The position numbers and the translations under genes were made by a program. Under the pieces are notes generated by a model. The model did not search any database. It was not told where the DNA came from and saw only the letters and a list, made by a program, of their open reading frames with translations. Positions 20,347 through 20,384 of a stretch of 64,000 nucleotides of DNA are shown piece after piece. The stretch's first letter is position 1; each line of letters begins with the position of its first letter. The stretch is from NCBI RefSeq assembly GCF_003334335.1, contig NZ_QOWQ01000003.1; one strand, written 5' to 3'. The DNA is from Escherichia coli (GTDB taxonomy: Bacteria > Pseudomonadota > Gammaproteobacteria > Enterobacterales > Enterobacteriaceae).

Positions 20347-20384
20347 CACTGTATAAAAATCCTATACTGTACGTATCGACAGTT
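20347..20384. promoter_or_regulatory. Tandem LexA (SOS) boxes upstream of ydjM
   Basis: tACTGTacgtatcgACAGtt at about 20365-20384 is an exact CTGT-N8-ACAG palindrome; an overlapping weaker box cACTGTataaaaatCCTAta lies at about 20347-20366. Confidence 0.7.

Follow-up and report, generated by a model that had tools for sequence, protein, structure and literature searches.

The closest described system for this locus is the operator of ydjM in Escherichia coli itself, whose tandem LexA sites were experimentally reported by Fernandez de Henestrosa et al. 2000 (Mol Microbiol 35:1560), according to the account given in PMC4951493. Since 2000 the gene has been an accepted part of the LexA regulon of E. 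coli. Reviews cite its tandem boxes, and it is placed among the SOS genes in a review of 2019 (PMC6590174). By RNA-seq, ydjM was induced 2.5-fold by AZT and was 8.6-fold lower in lexA3, which indicates dependence on LexA cleavage, and a heterology index (HI) of 9.0 is given for it (PMC11228462); in a UV time course its log2 induction reached up to about 2.6 (PMC11002266). The distal 20-mer of the operator was printed as a LexA site of b1728 in PMC4576408, where it is called novel relative to RegPrecise, and RegPrecise apparently lists one ydjM site. The core CTG-N10-CAG is called invariant for LexA boxes in the literature.

Other described systems share parts of this arrangement. The ydjM gene of Salmonella carries a pair of SOS boxes, placed 14 and 32 nt before its ATG (HI 9.12 and 12.85), its induction by nalidixate was 2.11-fold and its GFP fusion was too dim for analysis (PMC8072944). 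Salmonella recN has three boxes, with distances of 8, 26 and 48 nt to the ATG, of which the weak one has an HI of 12.97 (PMC8072944, Table 1). Colicin genes have strong and weak sites which overlap at their ends and are repressed cooperatively, as stated in PMC4951493 with reference to Gillor 2008. In a distant phylum, the Staphylococcus aureus operon SAOUHSC_02424 holds a YdjM-family gene (PF04307-type) under LexA control (PMC11442139).

Here we analyzed the region upstream of ydjM in a 64-kb stretch of E. coli DNA, the whole of which is called the window. The region is very probably the operator of the SOS gene ydjM, in which two LexA boxes cover the core promoter. The features on which the analysis is based are as follows.

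20238-20269, plus strand: terminator-like hairpin after hxpB, with 14 pairs followed by a T-run
20311-20346, plus strand: conserved block AAAGAGTTACACCGTCACCACTTCCG, directly upstream of the boxes
20347-20366: distal, weaker LexA box CACTGTATAAAAATCCTATA, a half-box and the third-best matrix site in the window
20352-20357, plus strand: TATAAA within the distal box, the alternative candidate for the -10 hexamer (putative)
20363-20368, plus strand: TATACT across the boundary between the two boxes, a candidate for the -10 hexamer (putative)
20365-20384: proximal LexA (SOS) box TACTGTACGTATCGACAGTT, a full CTG-N10-CAG site and the second-best matrix site in the window
20399-20989, plus strand: ydjM coding sequence (b1728), 196 amino acids and stop, as in the K-12 annotation

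The two boxes together read cactgtataaaaatcctatactgtacgtatcgacagtt (20347-20384). The original prediction had described an exact CTGT-N8-ACAG palindrome about 15 bp upstream of the ydjM start, with an overlapping weaker second box immediately upstream, and this description was confirmed. The CTGT-N8-ACAG core of the proximal box lies at 20367-20382, 14 nt were counted between the end of that box and the ATG (20399-20401), and the last two bases of the distal 20-mer (TA, 20365-20366) are common to the proximal 20-mer. The box ends are thus placed 14 nt (proximal) and 32 nt (distal) upstream of the ATG, and both candidate -10 hexamers are covered by the boxes. The gammaproteobacterial core CTG-N10-CAG (motif TACTG(TA)5CAGTA) is matched exactly by the proximal core CTGTACGTATCGACAG and is not matched by the distal site, which has the left arm CTG(T) and CTA in place of CAG as its right arm (CTG-N10-CTA), and which qualifies solely as a half-box or weak box. 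The centre-to-centre distance of the two boxes is 18 bp, by which two dimers are placed about 1.7 helical turns apart and not on the same face of the helix, a geometry which counts against the proposed occupancy by two dimers.

This layout was compared with the described systems. For the published E. coli operator the locus is identical, both 20-mers are the published ones and the tandem layout is alike, and no difference is seen against the account available for it. The Salmonella enterica gene (STM14_1605) is like that of E. coli, with a stronger and a weaker box at 14 and 32 nt and induction by nalidixic acid, and the same layout was found by our own scan in the loci of two S. enterica subspecies (L031 and L048); the Salmonella proximal box, with TGAATTG at its centre, scores above the E. 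coli one by the matrix used here (20.2 vs 15.6 bits). The double SOS boxes of colicin genes are alike in being a strong and a weak site with terminal overlap, which at ydjM score 15.56 vs 13.09 bits. Cooperativity has been demonstrated for the colicins, whereas for ydjM cooperative binding of LexA is suggested by the geometry of the boxes. The cores of the colicin boxes probably overlap more closely than those of ydjM with their 18-bp offset. The operators of lexA and recN resemble that of ydjM in having multiple LexA boxes in one promoter. The two boxes of lexA are both full CTG-N10-CAG sites, about 1 nt apart, and the distal ydjM site is unlike them in being a half-box. The S. aureus gene differs from ydjM by its Firmicute-type SOS box CGAAAATATGTTCG, its single box and its three-gene operon. 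As a separate observation, the weak box of Salmonella recN and its neighbour are 18 bp apart, as are the two boxes of ydjM, which hints at a recurring architecture of a strong and a weak box at 18 bp.

The exact CTGT-N8-ACAG pattern has one match only in the window, which is the ydjM proximal core. It could be argued that the boxes arose by chance and take no part in regulation, and the bare pattern by itself gives this argument some room, being expected 0.41 times per window by chance and present at least once in 32 of 100 shuffles. As the bare pattern is not significant alone, it was replaced by a matrix built from published sites. A symmetrised LexA matrix was made from 17 published E. coli boxes (PMC3009722), with ydjM and cho left out, and the position-weight-matrix scoring proposed with the original prediction was run over the whole window. 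The ydjM boxes came second and third (15.56 bits for the proximal and 13.09 bits for the distal box), below cho (19.3 bits) and above a fourth-best match of 11.4 bits. Of 500 dinucleotide-preserving shuffles of the window, 6% held a site that reached 15.56 bits and 29% held one that reached 13.09 bits, and in none (0/500) did two sites at or above 13.09 bits lie within 30 bp. The position of the proximal box 14 nt before the start codon, its presence in 80 of 80 species and the published LexA dependence also stand against chance. By this conservation and the published expression data the chance explanation is already refuted, and we regard it as exceedingly improbable.

In strength, both boxes fall in the range of known LexA boxes (HI below about 15, or a matrix score like those of known boxes). 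Their approximate HI values computed here are 9.9 and 10.0, and among proven sites they are on the weak side, the weakest training sites being polB (13.48 bits) and dinB (15.53 bits). The proximal box is a middling LexA box despite its perfect arms because its centre is ACGTATCG and not (TA)n. The best match in the window, although excluded from training, is the box of the known SOS gene cho (ydjQ), CACTGGATAGATAACCAGCA, at 33670-33689, which is followed after 13 nt by the GTG start codon (33703). The next-best matches lie at 36048-36067 (11.4 bits, between spy and astE) and at 27786-27805 (10.6 bits, inside chbF), and these are probably chance matches, such scores being common in the shuffles.

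The conservation of the operator was surveyed in species-representative genomes by one scan, which gave 80 loci. They come from about 30 Enterobacteriaceae genera, and their protein identity is 84-99%. The proximal box is present as TACTG[G/T]-N8-ACAG in all 80 loci, usually 14 nt before the ATG, and its arms are fixed while its centre is variable, a pattern which is as expected for the operator of a dimer. At the distal site the CTGT arm is kept at the exact 18-bp offset in 77 of the 80 loci, and the right arm CAG is found in none of the 80 species, the sequence there being always CCTATA. Since the CAG arm is never present, the distal element is a conserved half-box. The distal left arm is lost in two genera, namely in Citrobacter amalonaticus (L012) and in Intestinirhabdus (L026), both of which keep the proximal box. 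Between about -88 and -14 the sequence is highly conserved throughout, including the block upstream of the boxes, and because the whole 85-bp stretch is conserved, conservation alone does not single out LexA as the constraint on the distal site; its conserved part (TGTATAAAA) could be kept as promoter sequence. Both sites are thus real and conserved, and as a pair they are unusual by the shuffle statistics.

Within E. coli the region is nearly uniform. Against K-12 MG1655 the window has 19 differences over an alignment of 49,888 positions, none of them within the 113 nt upstream of ydjM. The segment was matched in 5424 of 5426 complete E. coli genomes, and 5423 of the 5426 carry the 91-nt operator region; the common SNPs, at 20345 and 20397, are outside both boxes among the four variants sampled. 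One of the 5423 genomes, E. coli NIPH17_0036 (L086), has a 7-bp deletion (AAATCCT) in the distal box, equivalent to 20358-20364, by which the tandem geometry is destroyed and the proximal box is left intact, so that it represents a natural single-operator variant.

These data bear on a second explanation, in which the proximal box alone works as a LexA operator and the distal box is promoter sequence that resembles a half-box, the LexA consensus being rich in TA. Such an explanation would account for the lack of the CAG arm in all 80 species, for the -10-like TATAAA inside the distal site and for the two loci (L012 and L026) which have lost the distal left arm and kept the proximal box; a single site of the distal score also occurs in 29% of the shuffles, and the apparent listing of one ydjM site in RegPrecise (PMC4576408) points the same way. 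Against it, tandem sites have been experimentally reported, according to the account in PMC4951493, and CTGT is kept in 77 of 80 loci at the exact 18-bp phase, its C and G among them, although these bases are dispensable for a -10 hexamer. The distal site was also scored as a box (HI 12.85) by an independent search in Salmonella, and Salmonella recN has another weak box at 18 bp from its neighbour. On balance we consider it unlikely that the proximal box acts alone, and the operator with two boxes is retained.

The promoter of ydjM was sought in the region upstream of the gene. The gene is flanked by hxpB and tcyP, and because the strong terminator-like hairpin separates it from hxpB, ydjM needs its own promoter within 20270-20398 (about 130 nt). 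No canonical sigma-70 promoter upstream of ydjM passed the promoter scan. By relaxed enumeration of hexamers two -10 candidates were found, neither of them with a good -35; for TATACT the best -35 at a 17-bp spacer is TTCCGT, with 2 of 6 matches. The sequence CCTATACTG is invariant in all loci, including the two without the distal CTGT/TATAAA, whereas TATAAA is lost in L026 (GGCAAA), a loss which speaks weakly against TATAAA as an essential -10. TATACT is favoured as the -10, since it is invariant even in L026 where TATAAA is absent. If TATACT is the -10, the start site of ydjM would be near 20375, inside the proximal box; the TSS supplements of Mendoza-Vargas 2009 have no entry for a ydjM start site.

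Some further candidates were rejected. The GTG at 20387 as the start codon of ydjM is disfavoured by indels of 1 and 2 nt between the box and the ATG in other genera. Other genera have a TTGACA/GTGACA motif some 80 nt upstream, which was considered as a -35 and discarded, there being no -10 at the right distance and no such motif in E. coli, and a CRP-site reading fails on spacing, as judged by eye from the alignment.

In the proposed mechanism, one LexA dimer would bind the full box at 20365-20384 and a second dimer would bind the adjoining half-box at 20347-20366. The two dimers would together cover the core promoter, that is, the two -10 candidates together with the probable start site, and RNA polymerase would be kept out until LexA undergoes RecA-stimulated self-cleavage after DNA damage. 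Whichever -10 candidate is used, this hexamer and the start site would lie under LexA on the two boxes, as is usual in repression by LexA. The distal half-box would be occupied only with the help of the proximal dimer, and the distal site may contribute to repression. The original prediction had spoken of cooperative LexA binding and tight SOS repression through the paired operators. The control of ydjM by LexA through tandem boxes agrees with the literature (PMC4951493 for the sites and PMC11228462 for the LexA dependence), whereas the cooperative binding is suggested by the box geometry and goes further than the evidence. LexA-dependent repression is likewise published, but the word tight is only loosely supported, the induction being modest (about 2-6 fold), and it goes further than the published fold-changes (2.5-fold with AZT, and 2.1-fold with nalidixate in Salmonella). 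As a whole the tandem boxes of ydjM are an already known and published SOS operator, correct and ordinary.

The block directly upstream of the boxes (20311-20346) has column identities of mostly 90-100% over 74 distinct sequences and is conserved like the boxes in about 30 genera. In other genera it holds an inverted repeat, GTGAC-N13-GTCAC, of which the left arm is degenerate (AAGAGA) in E. coli. The block may contain a weak -35 region or be bound by a further factor. It is conceivable, though somewhat doubtful, that a second regulator binds at 20311-20346 and that LexA is only one input to ydjM. This would be consistent with the conservation of the block at the level of the boxes, with the lack of an acceptable -35, which is typical of activator-dependent promoters, with the inverted repeat of other genera and with the very low expression of ydjM even when induced, including the absence of a GFP signal in Salmonella. 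The case is weakened by the degenerate left arm of the repeat in E. coli itself and by the lack of an identified factor, and the conservation of the block may merely reflect promoter or UP-like sequence. A second regulator is moreover compatible with the LexA operator as the main explanation and does not replace it.

A more speculative proposal, put forward tentatively and with less than even confidence, joins two possibilities. One is that the distal element is an obligate LexA half-site, kept beside a full site at the exact 18-bp phase in about 30 genera and never with CAG. The other is that the equally conserved 36-bp block at 20311-20346 binds a second regulator of this gene with its weak promoter. 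If the distal element is an obligate half-site, the second dimer would be held by one specific half-site contact together with a dimer-dimer contact, a defined architecture at which the recN spacing hints likewise.

The product of ydjM had been called a membrane protein of unknown function, which is a fair description. YdjM matches Pfam PF04307 (E 2.4e-35, residues 1-158) and the NCBIfam equivalog NF008651, named metal-dependent hydrolase, with a score of 374 bits where the cutoff is 216 (residues 1-195), so that it belongs to the family by a full-length profile match above the curated threshold. It is predicted to be a YdjM-family inner-membrane protein and metal-dependent hydrolase, and no solved structure of a relative was found at E up to 1.

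As a discovery the operator carries little weight, the LexA control of ydjM being long accepted. The YdjM family is LexA-controlled in Enterobacteriaceae as well as in Staphylococcus, and its biochemical role is a question which an operator sequence cannot answer. The small additions made here are the strict conservation of the distal half-box at a fixed phase, the promoter with no recognisable -35 and the further conserved block upstream, and these may be taken as minor leads for the architecture of LexA operators.

Some other features were also recorded in the window. Two matches to the Rfam sRNA family ES036 (CssrF) are on the plus strand at 26407-26449 and 33553-33595 (55.5 and 42.9 bits). 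Each follows closely on the end of a gene, katE in one case and nadE in the other, and these may be repeated terminator or REP-like elements and not independent sRNA genes. On the minus strand Rfam gave Phe_leader (the pheM attenuator upstream of pheST) at 9340-9464 and the STnc540 sRNA (near ihfA/btuC) at 5341-5499, both of them expected as usual features of this E. coli region.
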